This document shows positions 20,663 through 45,316 of a stretch of DNA of 64,000 bases, one piece after another. Each line of letters opens with the position of its first letter. The first letter of the stretch is position 1. The translations under genes were made by a program, and so were the position numbers. The stretch spans positions 96,001-160,000 of the forward strand of contig CAVXTP010000015.1 in NCBI GenBank assembly GCA_963764715.1, read 5' to 3'. Under the pieces are notes generated by a model, which was not told where the DNA came from, ran no database searches, and worked only from the letters and a program-made list of their open reading frames with translations. This DNA comes from an uncultured Acidobacteriota bacterium (lineage in GTDB: Bacteria > Acidobacteriota > Thermoanaerobaculia > UBA5066 > Gp7-AA6).

Positions 20663-23600
20663 CTAGCGGAAATCGTGGCTCGGGAGGCGGGCAAACTCGG
20701 GGATCGTCCAGAACTGCTCCGCCCGGACCGACAGCGAGCCGTCCTGCCGCTGGAGCCTGCCCTTGACGACGAGCGCCCCCGACCCGACGACGACGGCGCG
20801 CTGCTCGCGGAAGAGGTCGGGCCGGACGATCGCCTGGAGCATCCCGGTCTCGTCCTCGAGCGTCAGGAAGACGAACCCCTTCGCCGTCCCCGGCCGCTGG
20901 CGCACGATGACCGCGCCGGCCGCCGTGACCCGGTCGCCGTCCCGCTGGCGGCGGAGCTCCGAGGCCGACAGAACGCCCCGGCGCGCCAGCGACTTGCGCA
21001 GGTGCGACAGCATGTGCGGCCCCGTCGTGATCTCGGTCGACGCGTAGTCGGCGCGGGTCTCCTCGATCGGCGACATCTCCGGCAGCGGCGAGGGGTCGTC
21101 CGTCGGGATCTCCGCAAAGAGCGGCCCGGCCTCGCGCGCGACCTTCGCCACCTGCCAGAGCGCGGCCCGCCGCGTCCGCCCGAACGCCGCGAGCGCCCCG
21201 GCGTGCGCGAGGAGCTCGAGCTCCCCGTCGCGCAGGCGGCAGCGGCGGGCGAGGTCGTCGATCGACACAAAGGGCGCCTGCCCCTGCGCGCGCTCGATCG
21301 CCTCTCCCGTTTCCTGCTTCAGGCCCTTGACGAAGCGCATCCCCAGACGGACTCCGCCGCGCTCCCACCGGCACATCCAGCCCGACGAGGTCACGTCGAC
21401 CGGCCAGGCCGGCGTCCCGTGAAGCTGCGCGTCCTTGACGAGCGTGGCCGGGTGGTAGAAGCCCATCGGCCACGCGTTCAACAACGCCGCGAGAAACGCC
21501 GCCGGATGGTGGGCCTTGAGATAAGCGCTCGCGTACGCGATCAGCGCGAAGCTCGCCGCGTGCGACTCGGGAAACCCGTAGAGCGCGAAGGACGTGATCG
21601 ACTTGACGATCTGCTCCTGCGCCTCCGGACCGATGCCGCGCTCGGCCATTCCCTTCCGCAGCCGCGCCTCGATCGCGTCCATCCGCTCGACCGAACGCTT
21701 GAAGCCCATCGCGCGCCGCAGCTCCTCGGCCTCGCCGCCCGTGAATCCCGCCGCGACCATCGCCATCTTCAGGATCTGCTCCTGGAAGAGGGGCACGCCG
21801 AGCGTGCGCTTCAGGATCGGCTCGAGGCAGGGATCCGGGTACTCGACCTTCGCCCTCCCCTGCCGCCGCTCGAAGAACGGCCGGACCATGCCGCCGACGA
21901 TCGGCCCGGGCCGGATGATCGCGACCTGGACGACGATGTCGTAGAAGCACTTCGGAGCGTTCCTCGGGAGCGAGGCCATCTGGGCGCGGCTCTCGACCTG
22001 GAAGAGGCCGACCGTGTCGGCCGCGTTCAGCATCCGGTAGACCGCGGGATCGTCCTGCGGCAGGTGCGCGAGGTCCACCTCGAGCTTCTCGTGGGTCGAG
22101 ATCATCGGAATCGCCTCCTCGATCGCGGCGAGCATGCCGAGGCCGAGCAGGTCGACCTTCACGATCCCGAGATCCGCGCAGTCGTCCTTGTCCCACTGGA
22201 CGACGACGCGCCCCGGCATCGAGGCGGGCTCGAGCGGCACGACCTCGTCGAGCCTTCCCGCCGCGACGACGATCCCGCCCGAGTGCTGGCCGAGGTGGCG
22301 TGGGAGGTTCTGGATCTGCAGAAAGAGACGCAGGAAATGCCGCGCGCGCCGCTCTTCCGGATCGAGCCCCGCCGCGCGGACCTCCCGGGCGAGCTCCTCT
22401 GGCGGATCGCGGATCTCCCCGAAATTCCAGCCCCCGAGCTGCTTGGAGAGCGCGTCGACCTGCTCCGGCGAGTAACCGAGGGCCTTGGCGGTCTCGCGCG
22501 CCGAGGAACGGTCGCGGTAGGTGATGACGTTGGCCGTCATGCCGGCGCCGTGGGGACCGTACTTCTCGTAGACGTGCTGGATGACCTTCTCGCGCTCCAC
22601 CCCCGACGGGAGGTCGAGATCGATGTCGGGCCACTCGCCGCGCTCCTCCGAGAGGAACCGCTCGAAGAGCAGCTCCATCTTCACCGGATCGACGGCCGTG
22701 ATCGAGAGCGCATAGCAGACGGCGCTGTTGGCGGCGGACCCCCGGCCCTGCGCGAGGATGCGGTTCTCCAGGCAGAAGCGCACGATGTCCCAGACGATCA
22801 GGAAGTAGCCGGCGAGATCGAGCTTCTCGATCATCGCGAGCTCCTTCTCGATCTGTGCCTGGGCCTTCGCCGTCAGCGGACGGAACCGCGCGCGGGCGCC
22901 GTTCCAGGCGACCTGGCGCAGGTACGAGGACGGCGTCTCGCCGGGCGGAAGCGGATAGTCCGGGAACCGGTAGCCGAGGTCCGCGAGCGTGAAGTCGAGC
23001 CGGCGCGCGAGCTCGACGGACGCGTCGAGCATTTCCGGCATGTCGGAAAAGAGCCCGGCCATCTCGGCTGAGCCCCGGAAGTGGCGCTCGCGCTGCGCGG
23101 CGAGGAGGCGGCCCGCGCGGTCGAGCGTCGTGTGGTGGCGGATGCAGGTGAAGACGTCGTGGAGCTCCTTGTCCTTCTTGCGCGCGTAGCGCACGCCATT
23201 GGAGGCGAAGAGCGGAAGGCGGAGCCGCCGCGCGAGATCCACGAGCGCCTGGTTGCGCCGCTCCTCTTCCCGGAGACGATGCCGCTGGAGCTCGACGTGG
23301 AGCCGCCCCGGAAAGATCGCGCCGAGCCGCTCGAGCAGCGCCCGCGCCGCGTCCGGCCCGCCCTCCGCGAGGGCGCGCGCCACGGGCGACTCGTCGCCGC
23401 CCGTCGCGACGTGCAGGCCCTCCGCGTGCGCGGCGACCTGCTCGAGCGTGACCACGGTCTCGCCCTTCGGCTTGCCGAGCGCGCCGGCGGTGATCAAGCG
23501 GCAGAGGTTCCGATAACCGGCGCGGTTCTCGACGAGGAGCGTGAGACGGGGGCGGGCGGCCACAAGCCGATCACCAGAGGCAGACCCACGGCCATAGGCA

Positions 23601-24082
23601 ACGCCGGCACCAGCCGGCGGTAACGCCGCCCCTACTCTCCCGTGGTCGTAGGGGCGGGGCTTGTCCCCGCCCTCCAGCGTCACCTCCGCCCCCACGAGCG
23701 CCCTCACCCCTGCGGCCTTCGCCGCCTTCCAGAAGCGCGGCGCGCCGTAGACGCCGTTGCGATCGACGAGCGCGACGGCCGGGATCTCCAGGCGCGCGGC
23801 CTCTTCGACGAGGTCCTCCGGCAGCGACGCGCCGTCGAGGAAGGAAAACGCGGAGGCGGCGCGCATCTCGACGTAGGGGCGCGGCGCCGGCGGCGCGAGC
23901 TTCAGCGCGCGGGGAAAGTCGCGCTGCCGGAGCTTTTCCTTGCGCGCTCCCGCGGCGACGATCAGCGAGAGAGGGTCGGCCTCGGCGTGGCGCCCCCCGC
24001 AACTCGCGTTGCCGACTCCCAGGTTGCGGGACGGCGGCATTTCCGGAGGGCCTCCCGACGGGCGCGTGCGCTTGTCGGCCAC
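20663..24082 (-). CDS. dnaE2: error-prone DNA polymerase III alpha subunit DnaE2 (ImuC)
   Basis: SAFSFLDGASLPEDL PHP start, QGRGSAANSAVCY, ERGEWPDIDLD, PRHLGQHSGG, YGFPESHA, RQRPGTAKG, C-terminal SHDFR (SRDF-like motif). Confidence 0.95.
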   Translation of the reverse strand: MADKRTRPSGGPPEMPPSRNLGVGNASCGGRHAEADPLSLIVAAGARKEKLRQRDFPRALKLAPPAPRPYVEMRAASAFSFLDGASLPEDLVEEAARLEIPAVALVDRNGVYGAPRFWKAAKAAGVRALVGAEVTLEGGDKPRPYDHGRVGAALPPAGAGVAYGRGSASGDRLVAARPRLTLLVENRAGYRNLCRLITAGALGKPKGETVVTLEQVAAHAEGLHVATGGDESPVARALAEGGPDAARALLERLGAIFPGRLHVELQRHRLREEERRNQALVDLARRLRLPLFASNGVRYARKKDKELHDVFTCIRHHTTLDRAGRLLAAQRERHFRGSAEMAGLFSDMPEMLDASVELARRLDFTLADLGYRFPDYPLPPGETPSSYLRQVAWNGARARFRPLTAKAQAQIEKELAMIEKLDLAGYFLIVWDIVRFCLENRILAQGRGSAANSAVCYALSITAVDPVKMELLFERFLSEERGEWPDIDLDLPSGVEREKVIQHVYEKYGPHGAGMTANVITYRDRSSARETAKALGYSPEQVDALSKQLGGWNFGEIRDPPEELAREVRAAGLDPEERRARHFLRLFLQIQNLPRHLGQHSGGIVVAAGRLDEVVPLEPASMPGRVVVQWDKDDCADLGIVKVDLLGLGMLAAIEEAIPMISTHEKLEVDLAHLPQDDPAVYRMLNAADTVGLFQVESRAQMASLPRNAPKCFYDIVVQVAIIRPGPIVGGMVRPFFERRQGRAKVEYPDPCLEPILKRTLGVPLFQEQILKMAMVAAGFTGGEAEELRRAMGFKRSVERMDAIEARLRKGMAERGIGPEAQEQIVKSITSFALYGFPESHAASFALIAYASAYLKAHHPAAFLAALLNAWPMGFYHPATLVKDAQLHGTPAWPVDVTSSGWMCRWERGGVRLGMRFVKGLKQETGEAIERAQGQAPFVSIDDLARRCRLRDGELELLAHAGALAAFGRTRRAALWQVAKVAREAGPLFAEIPTDDPSPLPEMSPIEETRADYASTEITTGPHMLSHLRKSLARRGVLSASELRRQRDGDRVTAAGAVIVRQRPGTAKGFVFLTLEDETGMLQAIVRPDLFREQRAVVVGSGALVVKGRLQRQDGSLSVRAEQFWTIPEFARLPSHDFR
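23554..23672. repeat. REP doublet (82-nt long form + 25-nt form) inside dnaE2, frame preserved
   Basis: Long REP 23554-23635, 12-nt spacer, GTAGGGGCGGGGCTTGTCCCCGCCC 23648-23672. Confidence 0.9.
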
Positions 24083-24088
24083 CCCGGA

Positions 24089-24117
24089 ACGATAGGCGGT
24101 AAAAAGGCGTAAGTCAA
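24089..24117 (-). promoter_or_regulatory. sigma70-type promoter of dnaE2, probably leaderless
   Basis: Minus strand TTGACT-N17-TATCGT, then 6 nt, then GTG at 24082. Confidence 0.7.
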
Positions 24118-24133
24118 CCGCCCGCCGGGCCCC

Positions 24134-39165: not shown

Positions 39166-39214
39166 AAGGGCCGCCCCTACGACGGGAGCGTAGGGGCGGG
39201 GCTTGTCCCCGCCC
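39156..39214. repeat. GTAG-family REP doublet, GTAG ends facing inward
   Basis: GGGCGGCCACAAGGGCCGCCCCTAC 39156-39180, 9 nt, GTAGGGGCGGGGCTTGTCCCCGCCC 39190-39214. Confidence 0.9.
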
Positions 39215-39220
39215 TTCCGG

Positions 39221-39378
39221 CTAGCGCTTCTTCCGCTGGAGCCAGACCGGGCACGGACGGGGGTCAGGTCTTCATTTTTCGGGCCCCGGCTCCGTCCGCG
39301 GCTCGAGTCTCCGTCTCCCGGGGCCTTCGAAAAATGAGAGACCTGACCCCTACCGCTTCTTCCGCTGGAGCCAGACCG
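39221..39378. repeat. 29-bp direct repeat of permease 3' end flanking an inverted-repeat element
   Basis: CTAGCGCTTCTTCCGCTGGAGCCAGACCG 39221-39249 vs CTACCGCTTCTTCCGCTGGAGCCAGACCG 39350-39378. Confidence 0.9.
39260..39350. mobile_element. 91-bp MITE/REPIN-like element with GGGGTCAGGTCTTCATTTTTC inverted ends (type B)
   Basis: GGGGTCAGGTCTTCATTTTTCG...CGAAAAATGAGAGACCTGACCCC; further copies at 63333 and 63977; mobility inferred. Confidence 0.7.
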
Positions 39379-41845
39379 CGCCGAGGATGATGACGCCCTT
39401 GAGGATGAGCTGCAGGTTCGCATCGACATTGTTCAACCCCATGATGTTGTTGATGACTCCGATGATCAGCACGCCGACGAGCGTACCGCCGACCGATCCG
39501 GTTCCCCCCGAGAGGCTCGTTCCGCCGATGACGACCGCGGCGATCGCGTCGAGCTCGTACGCGATCCCGTCGTTGGGATTGCCCTGCTCGAGCTGCGCGC
39601 AGTGGACGATGCCGGCCAGCGCCGCGAGCGTCGCGGCGATCACGTACACGCCGGCCTTGTGCCAGGCCACGCGGATCCCCGACAGCCGCGCCGCCGTTTC
39701 GTTGTCGCCGATCGCGTAGAGGTAGCGCCCGGCGCTCGTGCGCGTCAGGAAGACGTGCATGCCGGCGACCGTCAGCAGGAACAGGACCGCCGGCGCCGGC
39801 ACGAAGGGCAGGAGCGTCCCGGCGATCCGGTGGACCGACTCCGGCGCGCCGCCTTGCCCGAACCCGAGCGGGATCGCCATGCCGCCGCTGACGTACCGGG
39901 CGACGCCGCGCGCCGCGCTCATCGTCGCGAGCGTCGCGATGAAGGGCTGCAGCTTCCAGCGCGCGACGACGAAGCCGTTGATCGCTCCGCAGAGCGCGCC
40001 GACGGCGAGGACGGCGAGGGCCGCCGCTCCGAGGCCGAGGCCGGCCTTCATGAAGAGCCAGGCCGTCAGCGTCGCGGCGAGCGCGAGGACCGAGCCGACG
40101 GAGAGGTCGATGCCGCCCGAGATGACGACGGCGGTCATGCCGACGGCCAGGATCCCCTTCTCCGCGACCTGCCGGAGGATGTCGGTCAGGTTGCCGATGT
40201 CGAGAAACACCGGCCGCCCGCCCCGGACCGGCGAGAAGACGACGGAGAGGAGCAGCACCGCCGCGAGCCCGAAGAGCCCGGTGTACCGTCCGAGCCGGCG
40301 CCGGCCCCGCGCCGGGGGCCCGCCGGACGGCGGACCGCCCGATTCTTCGCGCCGCTCCGTCGCGGTCGTCCCGGCCGCCGCGGCGAGGACCCGCTCCTCG
40401 GTCGCCTCGGCGTGCGGCAGCTCCGCCGTCACGCGGCCCTCGCGGAAGACGAGCACCCGGTGGCACTGCGTCAGGATCTCCGACATCTCGGAGGAGCAGA
40501 GGATGATCCCGAAGCCCTGCGCCGCGAGCCGGCGCAGGAGCGCGTAGACCTCGGCCTTCGCCGCGAGGTCGATCCCCCGCGTCGGCTCGTCGAGCAGCAG
40601 GACCGACGGCGAGGCGAAGAGGCAGCGCGCGAGAATCGCCTTCTGCTGGTTGCCGCCCGAGAGCGTCGCGATCGGGACCTCCGGCGACGCGGCGCGCACC
40701 CCCGTGTCGCGCATGAGCGCGGCGCCGGTCGCGCGCGCGCGAGGCCGGTCGATCCAGCCGAAACGCGAGATCTTCGGCAGCGATCCGACGGTCACGTTCT
40801 CCGATACCGCGAGATCCGGGAAGATCGCCTGGGACTTGCGCTCCTCGGGCAGCAGCACGACGCCGGCCTCGCGCGCTTCGGCGGGCGAGGTGGGCCGGTA
40901 CTCCGACCCGCCGACGACCACGCGGCCCGACACGGGGCGCTCGAGCGCGCCCGTCAGCGCGAGCAACAGCTCCGTGCGGCCTGCCCCGATCAGGCCCGCG
41001 AGACCCAGGATCTCGCCCCGGCGCAGCGTCAGGGAGACGTTCGACAGCCGCCGGCCGCCCGGGCGCTCGGGGTCCTCGACCGACAGGTCCTCGACCCGGA
41101 GGACCTCCGGGGCGCCGGCCTCGAGCGGCGAGAGCTCCACGCGCTCGATGTTGCGGCCCACCATGAGGCGGACCATCTCGTCCTCGCCGACGCCCTCGGC
41201 CTCGCGCGTGACGATGCGCTTCCCGTCGCGCAGCACCGTGATCCGGTTCGCGAGCCGTTGCACCTCGTCGAGCTTGTGGGAGATGTAGACGATCGCGACC
41301 CCGCGCTCGGTCAGGCGGCGGATCAGGCGCTCGAGCCGGGCGGCCTCCGACGAGGAGAGGGACGTCGTCGGCTCGTCCATGATGATGAGCCGCGCGTCGA
41401 GCGAGAGGGCGCGCGCGATCGCGACGAGCTGCCGCTGTCCGGCCTCGAGGTGCCCCACCGTCTCGTCCGGCGCGACGTGCGTTTCGCCCAGGGCCTCGAG
41501 CGCCTTCGCGGCTCCCGGCAGCAGCGAGCGCGGCCGGCCGAGGAAGATGTTCTCGGCGACCGACAGCGACGACACGAGCTGCAGCTCCTGCGGGATCACC
41601 GCGATCCCCGCCTCGATCGCCTCGCGCGGGCTCTCCATCCGCCGCGGCGCGCCGTCGACGCGGACCTCTCCCGCGTAGCCCGAGATCTCGCCGGAGAGGA
41701 TCTTGATGAGCGTCGACTTCCCGGCGCCGTTTTCGCCGATCAGCGCGTGCACCTCCCCCGGCCGCACGTCGAAGTCGACCGCGTCGAGCGCGCGAACGCC
41801 CGGGAACTCCATCGACACGCCGCGGGCTTCGACGAGGGAGGTCAT
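39350..41845 (-). CDS. fused sugar ABC transporter ATPase + permease (RbsA-RbsC-like)
   Basis: GENGAGKST, IIMDEPT, LSGGNQQK, LLDEPTRGID; then GGIDLSVGS, PFIATLA, YAIGDNE.AA.LSGI, YELDAIAAVVIGGTSL in one frame. Confidence 0.9.
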   Translation of the reverse strand: MTSLVEARGVSMEFPGVRALDAVDFDVRPGEVHALIGENGAGKSTLIKILSGEISGYAGEVRVDGAPRRMESPREAIEAGIAVIPQELQLVSSLSVAENIFLGRPRSLLPGAAKALEALGETHVAPDETVGHLEAGQRQLVAIARALSLDARLIIMDEPTTSLSSSEAARLERLIRRLTERGVAIVYISHKLDEVQRLANRITVLRDGKRIVTREAEGVGEDEMVRLMVGRNIERVELSPLEAGAPEVLRVEDLSVEDPERPGGRRLSNVSLTLRRGEILGLAGLIGAGRTELLLALTGALERPVSGRVVVGGSEYRPTSPAEAREAGVVLLPEERKSQAIFPDLAVSENVTVGSLPKISRFGWIDRPRARATGAALMRDTGVRAASPEVPIATLSGGNQQKAILARCLFASPSVLLLDEPTRGIDLAAKAEVYALLRRLAAQGFGIILCSSEMSEILTQCHRVLVFREGRVTAELPHAEATEERVLAAAAGTTATERREESGGPPSGGPPARGRRRLGRYTGLFGLAAVLLLSVVFSPVRGGRPVFLDIGNLTDILRQVAEKGILAVGMTAVVISGGIDLSVGSVLALAATLTAWLFMKAGLGLGAAALAVLAVGALCGAINGFVVARWKLQPFIATLATMSAARGVARYVSGGMAIPLGFGQGGAPESVHRIAGTLLPFVPAPAVLFLLTVAGMHVFLTRTSAGRYLYAIGDNETAARLSGIRVAWHKAGVYVIAATLAALAGIVHCAQLEQGNPNDGIAYELDAIAAVVIGGTSLSGGTGSVGGTLVGVLIIGVINNIMGLNNVDANLQLILKGVIILGAVWLQRKKR

Positions 41846-42021
41846 GGGCAAACGGGTTCCTGAGGGCTTCCGTCGTAGGGGCGGGGCTTGTCCCCGCCCT
41901 GATGAGCCGTGAGGGCGGCCACGAGCCGGCCAACGAAGGCAGGCCACCGGCGGTAGGCAACGCCGAGCGCAGCTCGGCGGTAACCCGCCCCTACGACCGG
42001 GCGCGCGGAACGGACTGTCAT
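41842..42021 (-). other. 59-codon REP-derived ORF coupled at both ends
   Basis: ATG 42021 overlaps ribulokinase TGA (ATGA); its TGA overlaps ABC ATG 41845 (ATGA). Confidence 0.55.
41875..41994. repeat. REP doublet (25-nt form + 82-nt long form), 120 bp
   Basis: GTAGGGGCGGGGCTTGTCCCCGCCC 41875-41899; long form 41913-41994 ending CCGCCCCTAC. Confidence 0.9.
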
Positions 42022-43649
42022 CCTCGCCCCTTCAGCCGCCGCATCAGATCCGTCTTGCGCCCGAAGTGGTCGTGCAGCTCCAGCCAATCCCGGTAGAGCG
42101 CGTCGTACGCATCGGCGGCCTCGGGTCGAGGCGTCACGCGCTCGGGCCTGAGGCGCGCCATGGCGCGCGCCGCGTCGGCGAAGGACCCGTGGCCGCCGTG
42201 CGCCGGCCCCGCCGCGACGGCCCCGAGCATGGCCGCCCCCAGCGCCGAGGCGTTCGCCGCGGCCGCGAGGCCGATCGGCCGCCGCGTCACGTTGGCGTAG
42301 ATCTGGAGGAGCAGGGGGCTCCTCTCGGCGAGGCCGCCCACCGCGATGAGCTCCGTTACCGGGATCTGCTTCTCGCCGAACGCGTCGAGGATCCGGCGCG
42401 TCGAGAACGCCGTCGCCTCGATCAGCGCCCGGTAGATGTCGCCCGCCGTCGTCGCGAGCGTCATGCCGACGAGAAGGCCCGTGAGGTTGGCGTCGACCAG
42501 GACCGAGCGGTTCCCGTTCCACCAGTCGAGCGCGAGCAGGCCGTGGCCGCCGGGCGGCGCCTCGGCGGCTTCCCGCTCGAGCGCCGCGAACCCGGCGCCG
42601 GTGCCGGCGACGAGCCTGGCGAACCAGCCGAAGATGTCGCCGACGGCCGGCTGCCCCGCCTCGTACCCCGAAAAGCCCTCGACGATGCCGTCGCGCACGA
42701 CGCCGCCCACGCCCTCGACGAGGGCGTGCCGGTCCGAGAGCAGCATGTGGCAGGTCGAGGTGCCCATGACCATGACCATCCGGCCGGTCTCGACGACCGT
42801 CGCCGCGGGGACCGCGCTGTGCGCGTCGATGATCGCCGCGGCGACCGCCGTTCCCGGCGCCAGGCCGAGCCGCGCGCCCATGGCCTCCGTCAGGCCGCCG
42901 ACGCGCCGCCCGGGCGGCACGATCTCGCCCGAGAGCTTCGAGGGCAGATCGCCGAAGCGCGGGTTCAGCGCCGCGAAGAACTCCGTCGACGGAAACCCGC
43001 GCTCGCGGCTCCAGAAGCCCTTGTAGCCGGCGCCGCAGGAGTTGCGCACGCGCGCGCCCGAGAGCTCGCCGACGACCCAGTCGCCGCCCTCGACGATCGC
43101 CGCCGCGGCGTCGTAGACCTGGGGATCCTCCTCGAGGACCTGGAGGGCCTTGGCGGCGAGCCACTCCGAGGAGCTCTTCCCGCCGTAGTCGGCGAGAAAC
43201 GCCTCGCCCCGCTTCTCGGCGAGCGCGTTGATCCGGTCGGCCTGGGGCTGCGCCGCGTGGTGCTTCCAGAGCTTGACCCACGCGTGCGGACGCGACGCCC
43301 ACGTCGGGAGCAGGCACAGCGGCCGCCCCGCGGCGTCGACCGGCAGCACGGTGCAGGAGGTGAAGTCGACGCCGATCCCGACGATGGATTCCTTCGCGAC
43401 GCCCGCCGCGGCGAGCGCCCGGGGCACGGCCTTCTCGATCGAGGCGATCCAGTCGCCCGGGTGCTGCAGCGCCCAGTCGGCTCCGAGGCGGACGCCCGAG
43501 TCCGGGAGCGCCGCGTCGATCACGCCGTGGGGATACTCCACGACGGCCGAGCCGCGTTCCTTCCCGGTGCGCGTCTCGACGACGACGGCGCGCACGGACG
43601 CCGTGCCGAAGTCGAGGCCGAGCGCGCAGGGCGGCTGCGGTGCCGTCAC
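42018..43649 (-). CDS. araB: ribulokinase (FGGY kinase)
   Basis: LGLDFGTASVRA, ALQHPGDW, GIGVDFT, WKHHAAQ, IDAH, MGTSTCH, LDWWNGNRS. Confidence 0.9.
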   Translation of the reverse strand: MTAPQPPCALGLDFGTASVRAVVVETRTGKERGSAVVEYPHGVIDAALPDSGVRLGADWALQHPGDWIASIEKAVPRALAAAGVAKESIVGIGVDFTSCTVLPVDAAGRPLCLLPTWASRPHAWVKLWKHHAAQPQADRINALAEKRGEAFLADYGGKSSSEWLAAKALQVLEEDPQVYDAAAAIVEGGDWVVGELSGARVRNSCGAGYKGFWSRERGFPSTEFFAALNPRFGDLPSKLSGEIVPPGRRVGGLTEAMGARLGLAPGTAVAAAIIDAHSAVPAATVVETGRMVMVMGTSTCHMLLSDRHALVEGVGGVVRDGIVEGFSGYEAGQPAVGDIFGWFARLVAGTGAGFAALEREAAEAPPGGHGLLALDWWNGNRSVLVDANLTGLLVGMTLATTAGDIYRALIEATAFSTRRILDAFGEKQIPVTELIAVGGLAERSPLLLQIYANVTRRPIGLAAAANASALGAAMLGAVAAGPAHGGHGSFADAARAMARLRPERVTPRPEAADAYDALYRDWLELHDHFGRKTDLMRRLKGRG

Positions 43650-45316
43650 GCCCGGTACTTCGCCGCCTGGTGCCGGTCGAGCGTCTGCTCGGGATCGCCG
43701 CACAGGTTGACCTGCATACCGAGCGCGCGGGCCATCGAGGCCTTGCGCACGAGCGCCCGGTTTGCCGTGGCCGCGTCCGGCGCGTATGCGACCTGGATGT
43801 GGTTGGCCATGTGCTTGGCCATCATCTGGTCGCGCGTGATCCCGTAGAGGACGGCGTGCATGATCGGCCACTGCGGCGTCGTCGCGTTCCACCGCCGCTG
43901 TGTCTCGGCATCCGACAGCTTCACGACGCCGCCCCGGCCGATGTCCATGTGGAGCGCGTGGTTCTTGACGTACACCCGCGAGAAGACGATCTCGCCCGGC
44001 TTCGAGACGCCCTTGAGGGTGGACCCGCCCTTCGGAAAGTACATGGGCGGCTGGCGTTCGCCCTTCGCCCCGGCGTATCCCCCGATGAAGTGCGAGGCCG
44101 GCGCGGCGCCCGAGATCTCGAAGACCCACACGTACGCGTTCACGCCGTTCTCCTCGACCGCCGCGCCCCAACGCACGTCGTGGAGCGTCGTCGAGGGATC
44201 GATGCCGAGGTCCGTCCAGACCCGGTTCGTCAGCAGCGCGTCGACCCCGGCGCACTCGTCGACCTCGTTGAAGTGCGGCACGGCGAGTCCGGAAAAGAGC
44301 GGCTTCCCGTCGGCGCCGGCGACCGGCGGCCGGTCGGGGTTGTTCAGCAGACCCTCCGCCAGGTCCGACGCGACGCACGTGTCCTTGAGTCCCTGCTGGT
44401 ACTGGATGCCGATCGCGGCGCAGCCGAAGTCGTGCGCCATGCGGACCGCGGCGTCGTACATCTTGAGGCCTTCGAGGACCTGCCCCTCGGTCAGCTCCGT
44501 CGACTCGTCCCGGCCGAGCGCGAACTTCATCCCGCGCGAGGTCAGCCACGCGTAGTGCCGCCGCGCAGCGTCGTCCGGCACCTCGCGCATCGCCGCGTAC
44601 AGCATCGACTGCGAGAGGCGCTCCTTGAAGAGCCCCATCGCGTGCATCAGGTCGTCGGGGACGATCGCGTTGTACATCCCCATGCAGCCCTCGTCGAAGA
44701 CGCCCAGGATCGCCTGGTCGCGCCTCAGTGCCTCGCCGAGCGCGGCGCCGCGGGCCCGGTCCTCGGCGTAGTTGCCGTTGAACGTCCGGTCCTCGATTGC
44801 CTGCGCGTGGCTGGTGTCGTGCGCGATCGCGCCCTGCGACAGCCACTGGCGCAGGGCCCCGCGCGCGAAGCCGTCCTCGAAGTCCTCGCTCCAGATCGAG
44901 CTGTACGGGATCCCCGCCTTCGTCAGCGAGGCGTTGACGTTCAGCATGCCGACGAGGCCCGGCCACTCTCCGCTCCAGTTGGCGAGCGTCAGGATCGGGC
45001 CCCGGTGCCTGGTGAGGCCGGCCAGGATGTGGCTCGTGTACTCCCAGACCGCCTCGGCCACGACGAGCGGGGCTTCGGGATCGATCTTGCGGAAGATCTG
45101 GATGCCGCGGGCCTGCCCGTCGATGAAGCCGTGCTTCTTCTCGGGATCGTACGCATGGCCGCGCGTGATCCGCGCGCCGAGCTCGCCGAAGGCCTTGTCC
45201 ACGGCCTTCTCGAGGGTCTGCTGCGCCGGCCAGCATCTCTGGTTGGCCGAGATCCGCGAGTCGCCGCTCGCGACGAGGACGACCTCCTTTGCTCCGGGCT
45301 TGACGGATGTGCTCAT
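43646..45316 (-). CDS. L-fucose/D-arabinose isomerase-like protein
   Basis: ANWSGEWPGLVG, FDEGCMGM, IGIQYQQG, HFNEVD, TTLHDVRWG, ANHIQVAY; family recalled from memory and supported by position beside ribulokinase. Confidence 0.7.
   Translation of the reverse strand: MSTSVKPGAKEVVLVASGDSRISANQRCWPAQQTLEKAVDKAFGELGARITRGHAYDPEKKHGFIDGQARGIQIFRKIDPEAPLVVAEAVWEYTSHILAGLTRHRGPILTLANWSGEWPGLVGMLNVNASLTKAGIPYSSIWSEDFEDGFARGALRQWLSQGAIAHDTSHAQAIEDRTFNGNYAEDRARGAALGEALRRDQAILGVFDEGCMGMYNAIVPDDLMHAMGLFKERLSQSMLYAAMREVPDDAARRHYAWLTSRGMKFALGRDESTELTEGQVLEGLKMYDAAVRMAHDFGCAAIGIQYQQGLKDTCVASDLAEGLLNNPDRPPVAGADGKPLFSGLAVPHFNEVDECAGVDALLTNRVWTDLGIDPSTTLHDVRWGAAVEENGVNAYVWVFEISGAAPASHFIGGYAGAKGERQPPMYFPKGGSTLKGVSKPGEIVFSRVYVKNHALHMDIGRGGVVKLSDAETQRRWNATTPQWPIMHAVLYGITRDQMMAKHMANHIQVAYAPDAATANRALVRKASMARALGMQVNLCGDPEQTLDRHQAAKYRA

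Follow-up and report, generated by a model that had tools for sequence, protein, structure and literature searches.

A repeat-filled open reading frame between a ribulokinase gene and an ABC transporter gene of uncultured Thermoanaerobaculia as a candidate translational relay

In the stretch of DNA analysed here (the window; 64,000 nucleotides of contig CAVXTP010000015.1), which stems from an uncultured member of the Thermoanaerobaculia (Acidobacteriota; genome G000, 4.36 Mb in 26 contigs, 70% GC), a ribulokinase-like gene (araB) is separated from a gene for a fused ATP-binding cassette (ABC) ATPase-permease by a gap which is, from end to end, a single open reading frame (ORF) of 59 codons. 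This bridge ORF is filled with palindromic repeats and is joined to its neighbors by ATGA stop/start overlaps at both ends; judged from the sequences, it probably relays ribosomes between the two genes. Comparison within the genus argues that the frame of the gap is under selection and the filler sequence is not; by the same evidence, the length class and the openness of the filler are constrained while its sequence is free.

The bridge ORF between araB and the ABC gene

The araB gene (42018..43649, minus strand; Pfam FGGY_N and FGGY_C, that is, a ribulokinase-like FGGY kinase) ends in GGA TGA, and the homologous stop position is retained in the congeners. The ATG of the bridge ORF (41842..42021, minus strand) is built from the A of this GGA and the following TG (42021-42019) and overlaps the araB stop codon (42020-42018), and its own TGA (41844-41842) overlaps the ATG of the ABC gene (41845-41843); translation and coordinates are exactly those of the 59-residue ORF which an earlier note on this DNA had described as filling the gap. 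The ORF belongs to no Pfam family. The ABC gene behind it (39350..41845, minus strand) encodes 831 amino acids with two ABC_tran domains and a BPD_transp_2 permease domain; its start, ATGACC, was set by homology, as the N-terminus MTSLVEARG aligns in 27 congeners. Ahead of this start there is only a weak AGGA (41861-41858), badly spaced at -16 when the Shine-Dalgarno (SD) signal of the genome peaks at about -11 to -9, which makes the remark in the earlier note that the ABC gene has no obvious SD sequence a fair one.

The repeats do not reach the ends of the gap. Between the araB stop and the repeats lies a 5′ spacer of 20 nt (41998..42017, minus strand) for which blastn finds no second copy in the genome, and between the repeats and the ABC start lies a 3′ spacer of 26 nt (41846..41871, minus strand), likewise unique, which holds the AGGA. 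The latter is common to G000 and its closest relative, genome G056 (locus L032), and the 5′ spacers of the two cannot be aligned.

The junction in related genomes

The araB gene is present in 29 of the 44 genomes of the genus, and 28 araB-ABC junctions were read, including that of G000; left out were L004, where the frames are fused, L012 and L015, which lie at a contig edge, and the duplicates L060, L061, L062 and L064. The junctions are best compared by the distance d from the first base of the araB stop codon to the ABC start: with d = 1 (mod 3) an ORF begun at an RTGA over the araB stop ends on the RTGA of the ABC gene, with d = 2 it is in frame with the ABC gene, and with d = 0 it overruns the ABC start out of frame. 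Offset counts are given below in the order 0/1/2.

Five loci (L005, L006, L038, L054 and L063, the last being the most divergent) have a direct ATGA, TTGA or GTGA overlap of araB and the ABC gene, and these loci fall in separate branches of the tree. In L002, L049 and L050 the araB frame itself traverses a miniature inverted-repeat transposable element (MITE) and terminates on the ABC ATGA; the araB frame of L007 comes to an end 4 nt ahead of the ABC ATG. The remaining 18 congeners are gapped, with fillers which measure 73 to 436 nt and belong to at least four repeat families unrelated to one another: the repetitive extragenic palindromes (REPs) REP-A and REP-B, a GAG-type palindrome (CCCCTCACCC/GGGAGAGGG), a GTC-type palindrome (GTCATCCCGAG/GGGATCCCTC; five tandem units of 78 nt in L011) and a MITE with terminal inverted repeats (TIRs; GGGGTCAGGTCT). 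The earlier note had pointed to relatives for a 60-bp version free of REPs; none was found, the REP-free relatives having the direct 4-nt overlap instead. In a tree of the ABC N-terminus, sister loci carry fillers of different families, with REP in L008 and the GAG-type in L009, and unlike fillers also in the pairs L010/L046, L011/L058 and L001/L003; the filler is therefore subject to fast turnover. The bridge peptide is accordingly not conserved, sister species having differing fillers, and the bridge ORFs of the relatives range from 6 to 147 codons.

The frame is preserved through this turnover. Among the 18 gapped congeners the offsets are 0/14/4, the chain-breaking offset thus occurring in 0 of 18, and a continuous translation path exists in 17: there are 12 single bridge ORFs, four extensions in frame with the ABC gene from the start over the araB stop, and one two-step relay (L003); the path of the eighteenth (L055) is broken by a stop codon. 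Counted as 17 distinct states the offsets are 0/13/4 (binomial p = 3e-4, phylogeny ignored). The 19 gaps contain 13 stop codons in the araB frame, 16 in the +1 frame and two in the bridge frame. As gap lengths and spacers vary while the total remains 1 (mod 3), the ORF is not a fixed property of one element. A metagenome scan yielded three close relatives, two of which (L140, L141) have a doubly coupled bridge; the third (L142) ends before the ABC gene. The translational bridge proposed in the earlier note thus gains support from the sequences, in that the frame is conserved in relatives and the content is not.

At L046 (genome G041) the native ABC ATG is out of frame through a 2-nt difference, and the sole in-frame start is a GTG overlapping the araB stop, 36 codons upstream; either the bridge start is really used there or the assembly is in error.

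Replicate and control junctions

Three further junctions, J1 to J3, were chosen from the 20 repeat-bearing gaps of G000 and scored in up to 29 congeners each, with G000 excluded from the counts and downstream starts assigned by homology to G000. At J1, 22 of 29 loci have a direct overlap, two a short gap (<16 nt) and five a longer gap; the offsets of the latter are 0/5/0 and all five are continuous. J2 (28 loci) has three direct overlaps, no short gap and 25 gapped loci with offsets of 3/19/3, 23 of them continuous; two of the three loci with d = 0 chain two ORFs, and the third has a start 4 nt past the bridge stop. J3 (29 loci) has 14 direct overlaps, no short gap and 15 gapped loci, all continuous, with offsets of 0/13/2. 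As controls served junctions selected for the absence, in G000, of a start codon overlapping the upstream stop; only two, K2 and K3, were usable. K3 is gapped in 29 congeners, which carry REP, GTC-type and heptamer repeats and mostly CTGA stops, and its offsets are 12/8/9 with a continuous path in 6 of 29; at K2, where synteny is kept in only nine congeners, they are 1/4/4.

Pooled as distinct states, the coupled junctions give 3/49/9 (p = 6e-14, binomial for d = 1) against 13/12/13 at the controls, and the two distributions differ with a chi-square p of 3e-6. A repeat alone cannot impose a frame of this kind, because the spacers vary and because like repeats give uniform offsets at an uncoupled junction. 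Furthermore, the 49 states with the bridge offset, versus nine in frame, agree with a hand-over at the second RTGA, by which neither protein would be altered. The initiation signals agree with this picture: of the 67 gapped loci at coupled junctions, 66 have a start codon over the upstream stop and one has a 5-mer SD core; at K3 a 4-mer SD core is present in 30 of 30 loci and an overlapping start in nine of 30. Across the four junctions, 43 of the 63 gapped loci of congeners retain an exact RTGA overlap where the gap meets the downstream gene.

The junction between the isomerase-like gene and araB was rejected as a further replicate; it is uninformative, having no repeat-filled gap in 27 readable congener loci, which mostly show direct GTGA overlaps and a few gaps of up to 41 nt. 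The araB-ABC junction, the next one downstream, is a hotspot of repeat insertion. The isomerase-like gene (43646..45316, minus strand; fucose-isomerase-like and part of the same operon) lies upstream of araB, whose GTG start overlaps its stop codon (GTGA, 43646-43649). All of these genes are on the minus strand, and the order isomerase-like gene, araB, gap and ABC gene is kept in 27 congeners.

A putative relay

The following course of events would account for these data. Ancestrally, araB and the ABC gene would have shared a 4-nt RTGA stop/start overlap and have been translationally coupled by it. Repeat DNA would then have entered this overlap, in G000 a REP-A together with a REP-B that a nested hairpin element split afterwards, and only those insertions would have survived that left an unbroken chain of translation, with a start over the araB stop, a stop-free frame and a TGA over the ABC start. 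Ribosomes ending araB would re-initiate on the overlapping AUG, translate the 59-codon filler and melt the REP hairpins on their way; they would then terminate at the ABC AUG and re-initiate there, and the bridge peptide would be a throw-away product. Translation of the bridge ORF and dependence of the ABC gene on it are what we infer from the conserved frame. The comparison cannot tell re-initiation from an unmasking of the ABC start by hairpin melting, or from avoidance of interference and polarity.

Chance, and alternative explanations

A codon-bias gene caller predicts 3484 genes in G000, and 566 of the 2507 co-directional neighbor pairs overlap by 4 nt; this style of coupling is therefore the norm in the genome. 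Cases similar to the one singled out in the earlier note do occur in the 1136 co-directional gaps of 30-500 nt: a single doubly coupled ORF spans 54 of the 1136, and 20 of these gaps bear repeats.

A number of observations weigh against the relay. The genome-wide signal for bridges is weak, as the 54 doubly coupled ORFs compare with about 41 expected from frame-shift controls and the 20 in repeat-bearing gaps with about 14, both modest excesses, and bridges and in-frame extensions together (99) are barely above the roughly 93 expected; moreover, some five of the 20 repeat-bearing bridges resemble true small genes, for example zinc-ribbon-like ones. In the G000 gap, the ABC frame stays open as far as 42031 and that of the bridge as far as 43317, and the gaps of G000, L032 and L034 are open, or almost open, in all three frames; at 70% GC the single ORF of G000 is, for this reason, not distinguishable from chance when taken alone. 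When the G000 gap is shuffled by dinucleotides and its frame drawn at random, 35% of trials still yield a continuous path. The minimum free energy (MFE) fold of the gap (-100.1 kcal/mol, z = -1.2) is not unusually stable, and the weak AGGA at -16 could permit some independent initiation of the ABC gene. J1 to J3 were ascertained on G000 having a bridge there, the congeners are kin and not independent, the p-values ignore phylogeny, and several genomes are metagenome-assembled genomes (MAGs). The ABC frame of L002, L007 and L016 (genomes G017, G003 and G013) is interrupted by stops some 175-230 codons in, which probably reflect indel errors in MAGs from long reads and call for caution with any count based on frames.

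Openness by chance is also the core of a neutral explanation, in which repeats were inserted into an ATGA overlap with duplication of the ATGA, GC-rich repeat DNA is poor in stops in any case, and nothing depends on the ORF, the ABC gene starting independently. The shuffles speak for it, as a continuous path arises with a random frame in 23-67% of trials, depending on the locus, and so do the nearly open frames of G000 and the small genome-wide excess; further, the sequence ATGAC borders the gap on either side, which is what a target duplication would produce. Such a target-site duplication, possible as it is, is not supported, since about 16 and 21 nt separate the ends of the repeat copies from the ATGAC on either side and the spacers are single-copy. 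Neither does a neutral course explain why offsets are 3/49/9 at the coupled junctions and 13/12/13 at the controls, when K3 holds repeat types that also occur at coupled junctions, nor why the overlapping start is kept in all but one of the loci and the SD sequence is missing. It is thus quite unlikely. Another view accepts selection on the gap, acting not in favor of a relay but against harm: the start over the araB stop would fire regardless, an overrun out of frame would block the ABC start, and untranslated gaps would invite Rho-dependent termination or RNA decay, so that the geometry would merely avoid damage, with the ABC gene initiated afresh, aided by the melting of hairpins (RNA-unfolding model). 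Consistent with it, the overshooting offset occurs in none of the gapped congeners at the araB-ABC junction, and the MFE fold pairs the region of the araB stop with that of the ABC start, which translation from upstream could unmask; unfolding and re-initiation are both treated as live models in the passage on coupling of the review by Brown & Wade (2025, J Bacteriol, PMC12548453). However, avoidance alone requires no exact downstream RTGA overlap, kept as it is in most gapped loci, and does not explain why bridge ORFs are far commoner than in-frame extensions; it is considered unlikely. That the bridge ORF is a functional small-protein gene is highly improbable: the ORF is complete and begins with ATG, and some other bridges of G000 do resemble true small genes, but it has no Pfam match, its sequence is repeat DNA, and unrelated peptides take its place in sister species.

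The relay between araB and the ABC gene may be one instance of something wider. It is quite possible, if tentative, that any mobile repeat can land safely in a stop/start overlap, in this genus and perhaps across many GC-rich bacteria, subject to the strict filter that the landed DNA has to yield a throw-away ORF free of stops and coupled at both ends; relays reaching about 150 codons, or two serial ORFs, would then keep the operon coupled. The same tolerance might lead to in-frame repeats within proteins, such as those in the DnaE2 loop and the lipoprotein leader described below, and the repeat families may have evolved stop-poor, codon-friendly sequences that take advantage of it.

The repeats in the bridge and elsewhere in the genome

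The earlier note spoke of a REP doublet of exactly 120 bp within the bridge. The length holds, as GTAGGGGCGGG...CCCGCCCCTAC spans 41875..41994, with GTAGGGGCGGG representing the outer cores of the repeat pair, and two repeat units are indeed present; what was taken for a plain doublet is a REP-A plus a REP-B with a further element nested in its loop. REP-A is a hairpin (GTAGGGGCGGGGCTTGTCCCCGCCC; 41875..41899, plus strand, found as an inverted repeat with genome copies) which reads GGDKPRPY on the minus strand. The REP-B unit (41912..41997, minus strand, recognized by inverted repeats) has its arms at about 41997-41985 and 41925-41912, split by the nested two-hairpin element (about 41984-41926, minus strand), which became apparent from comparison with L032: there REP-B is plain, REP-A and the 3′ spacer are shared with G000, and the gap is 57 nt shorter, so that the nested element in G000 adds 57 nt and preserves the frame. 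An inverted pair lies at 41872-41885 / 41984-41997. The core 11-mer has 128 exact copies in the genome and, at up to one mismatch, 12 in the window against 2.3 expected; a pattern search for REP-A returned 120 copies genome-wide. A search of the whole window with Rfam at the gathering threshold gave no match.

The nested element of about 57 nt (..ACCGCCG-stem-CGGCGTTGCCTAC.GCCGGGGGTCTGCC.TCGGTGG.CGGCT..) occurs in the window at about 41926-41984 and at 23560-23625, and in G000 in 43 copies altogether. Its first stem shows compensatory changes, and it has no Rfam match in the window; it frequently sits in the REP-B loop and is found within other repeats too in relatives. Another repeat type of G000, heptamer palindromes of the form (GGCAGGC)n ... 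(GCCTGCC)n, makes up five doubly coupled bridge ORFs (L220-L224; contigs C10, C12 with two, C16 and C2) which translate as ..AGGRRQAAG..LLPPAS.., the composition keeping all frames free of stops.

Repeats are also read within genes. In the gene for DnaE2 (minus strand, 24133..20663) REP-A and REP-B with the nested element lie in frame at 23553-23668, in a loop between GAEVTL and RLTLLVENR of the error-prone polymerase. The earlier note had stated that the repeats are read in the same frames here and in the bridge; GGDKPRPY and VGA..GVAY..LVAA are indeed read in DnaE2, with the order of the units reversed. Shared frames were discarded as a signal in their own right, given that REP-A in co-directional gaps stands in the bridge phase 10 times and in the next phase nine times (phases relative to the upstream stop, 1/9/10). 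In congeners the DnaE2 loop holds in-frame copies of GTC-type, GAG-type and heptamer-type repeats; the loop region is 51-95 residues long in the nine of 30 loci caught by the search pattern.

Downstream of the ABC gene, the gene for a sugar-binding lipoprotein (39166-39432, minus strand) probably starts at ATG 39429 or 39423, which lies within the ABC gene, 77 or 71 nt from its 3′ end. In 24 of 28 congeners this ATG and an open frame persist, and in nine it is the only start ahead of the lipobox; the offset at this junction is 1 (mod 3) in 25 of 28. The MITE, REP-A and REP-B of the apparent gap between the two genes would then be in-frame insertions in a leader ahead of the signal sequence. 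About 24 nt of the ABC 3′ end (GGTCTGGCTCCAGCGGAAGAAGCG plus TAG) flank the GGGGTCAGGTCT MITE on both sides (39221-39373, minus strand); insertion and duplication amount to 129 nt, a multiple of three. The junction of the ABC gene with the binding-protein gene (K1) had been considered as a control and was rejected: the binding-protein frame is open from -80 with the conserved ATG at -77/-71, and the gap is probably coding.

Significance and relation to known systems

The coupled junctions constitute a natural experiment, with dozens of independent insertions at the same junctions, in which the frame of the filler appears to have been selected and its sequence not. As far as sequence comparison can say, 4-nt coupling would be needed for downstream expression and could be relayed over a long distance by a throw-away ORF. 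For genome annotation this means that bridge ORFs are neither genes nor noise; for operon design, a relay ORF could carry coupling past an inserted element; for repeat biology, it contributes to explaining which sites tolerate REPs and MITEs.

In proteobacteria, REPs and bacterial interspersed mosaic elements (BIMEs) are short GC-rich imperfect palindromes that exceed 100 copies and, downstream of genes, often form inverted pairs, and classical REPs are described as untranslated elements of RNA stability or termination. The bridge repeats conform to this description, being short, GC-rich, imperfect palindromes with more than 100 dispersed copies and inverted pairs; they differ in that they lie within a coupled ORF and, elsewhere, in frame inside genes. 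In the latter respect they resemble the palindromic elements of Rickettsia, which are inserted in frame in genes: repeats are tolerated in translated sequence, here in the DnaE2 loop and in the leader of the binding protein. The bridge, however, is a separate ORF between two genes and not an insertion in a protein. A literature search found no account of REPs or MITEs as coupling bridges.

The closest parallel are the interspersed repetitive units of mycobacteria (MIRUs), mobile short repeats which, in the passage devoted to them by Brown & Wade (2025), insert at start codons inside operons and carry an ORF coupled to the neighboring gene at -4 nt, which limits the harm to expression; coupling over an untranslated gap, according to the same review, usually fades past about 30-40 nt (PMC12548453). 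At the araB-ABC junction, too, repeats lie between co-directional genes of one operon, and a -4 nt overlap is found downstream as well as upstream, as it is in 12 of the 18 gapped congeners. The relay principle has thus been stated already for MIRUs, in a passage that is without comparative counts of the present kind. Measured against that description, the bridges differ in their acidobacterial host, in drawing on at least four unrelated families (REP-A/B, GAG-type, GTC-type and the TIR MITE, with heptamer palindromes at other junctions), and in that the gap as a whole, with its spacers, sets the frame; an element ORF of fixed length, orientation and phase, as in MIRUs, is not what the acidobacterial bridges contain. 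With termination-reinitiation coupling at ATGA and TGATG overlaps (Huber et al. 2019, PMC6728339) they share the canonical 4-nt overlap, present at both ends of the bridge; the araB-ABC junction is distinct in that two such overlaps are chained via a filler ORF of 59 codons.

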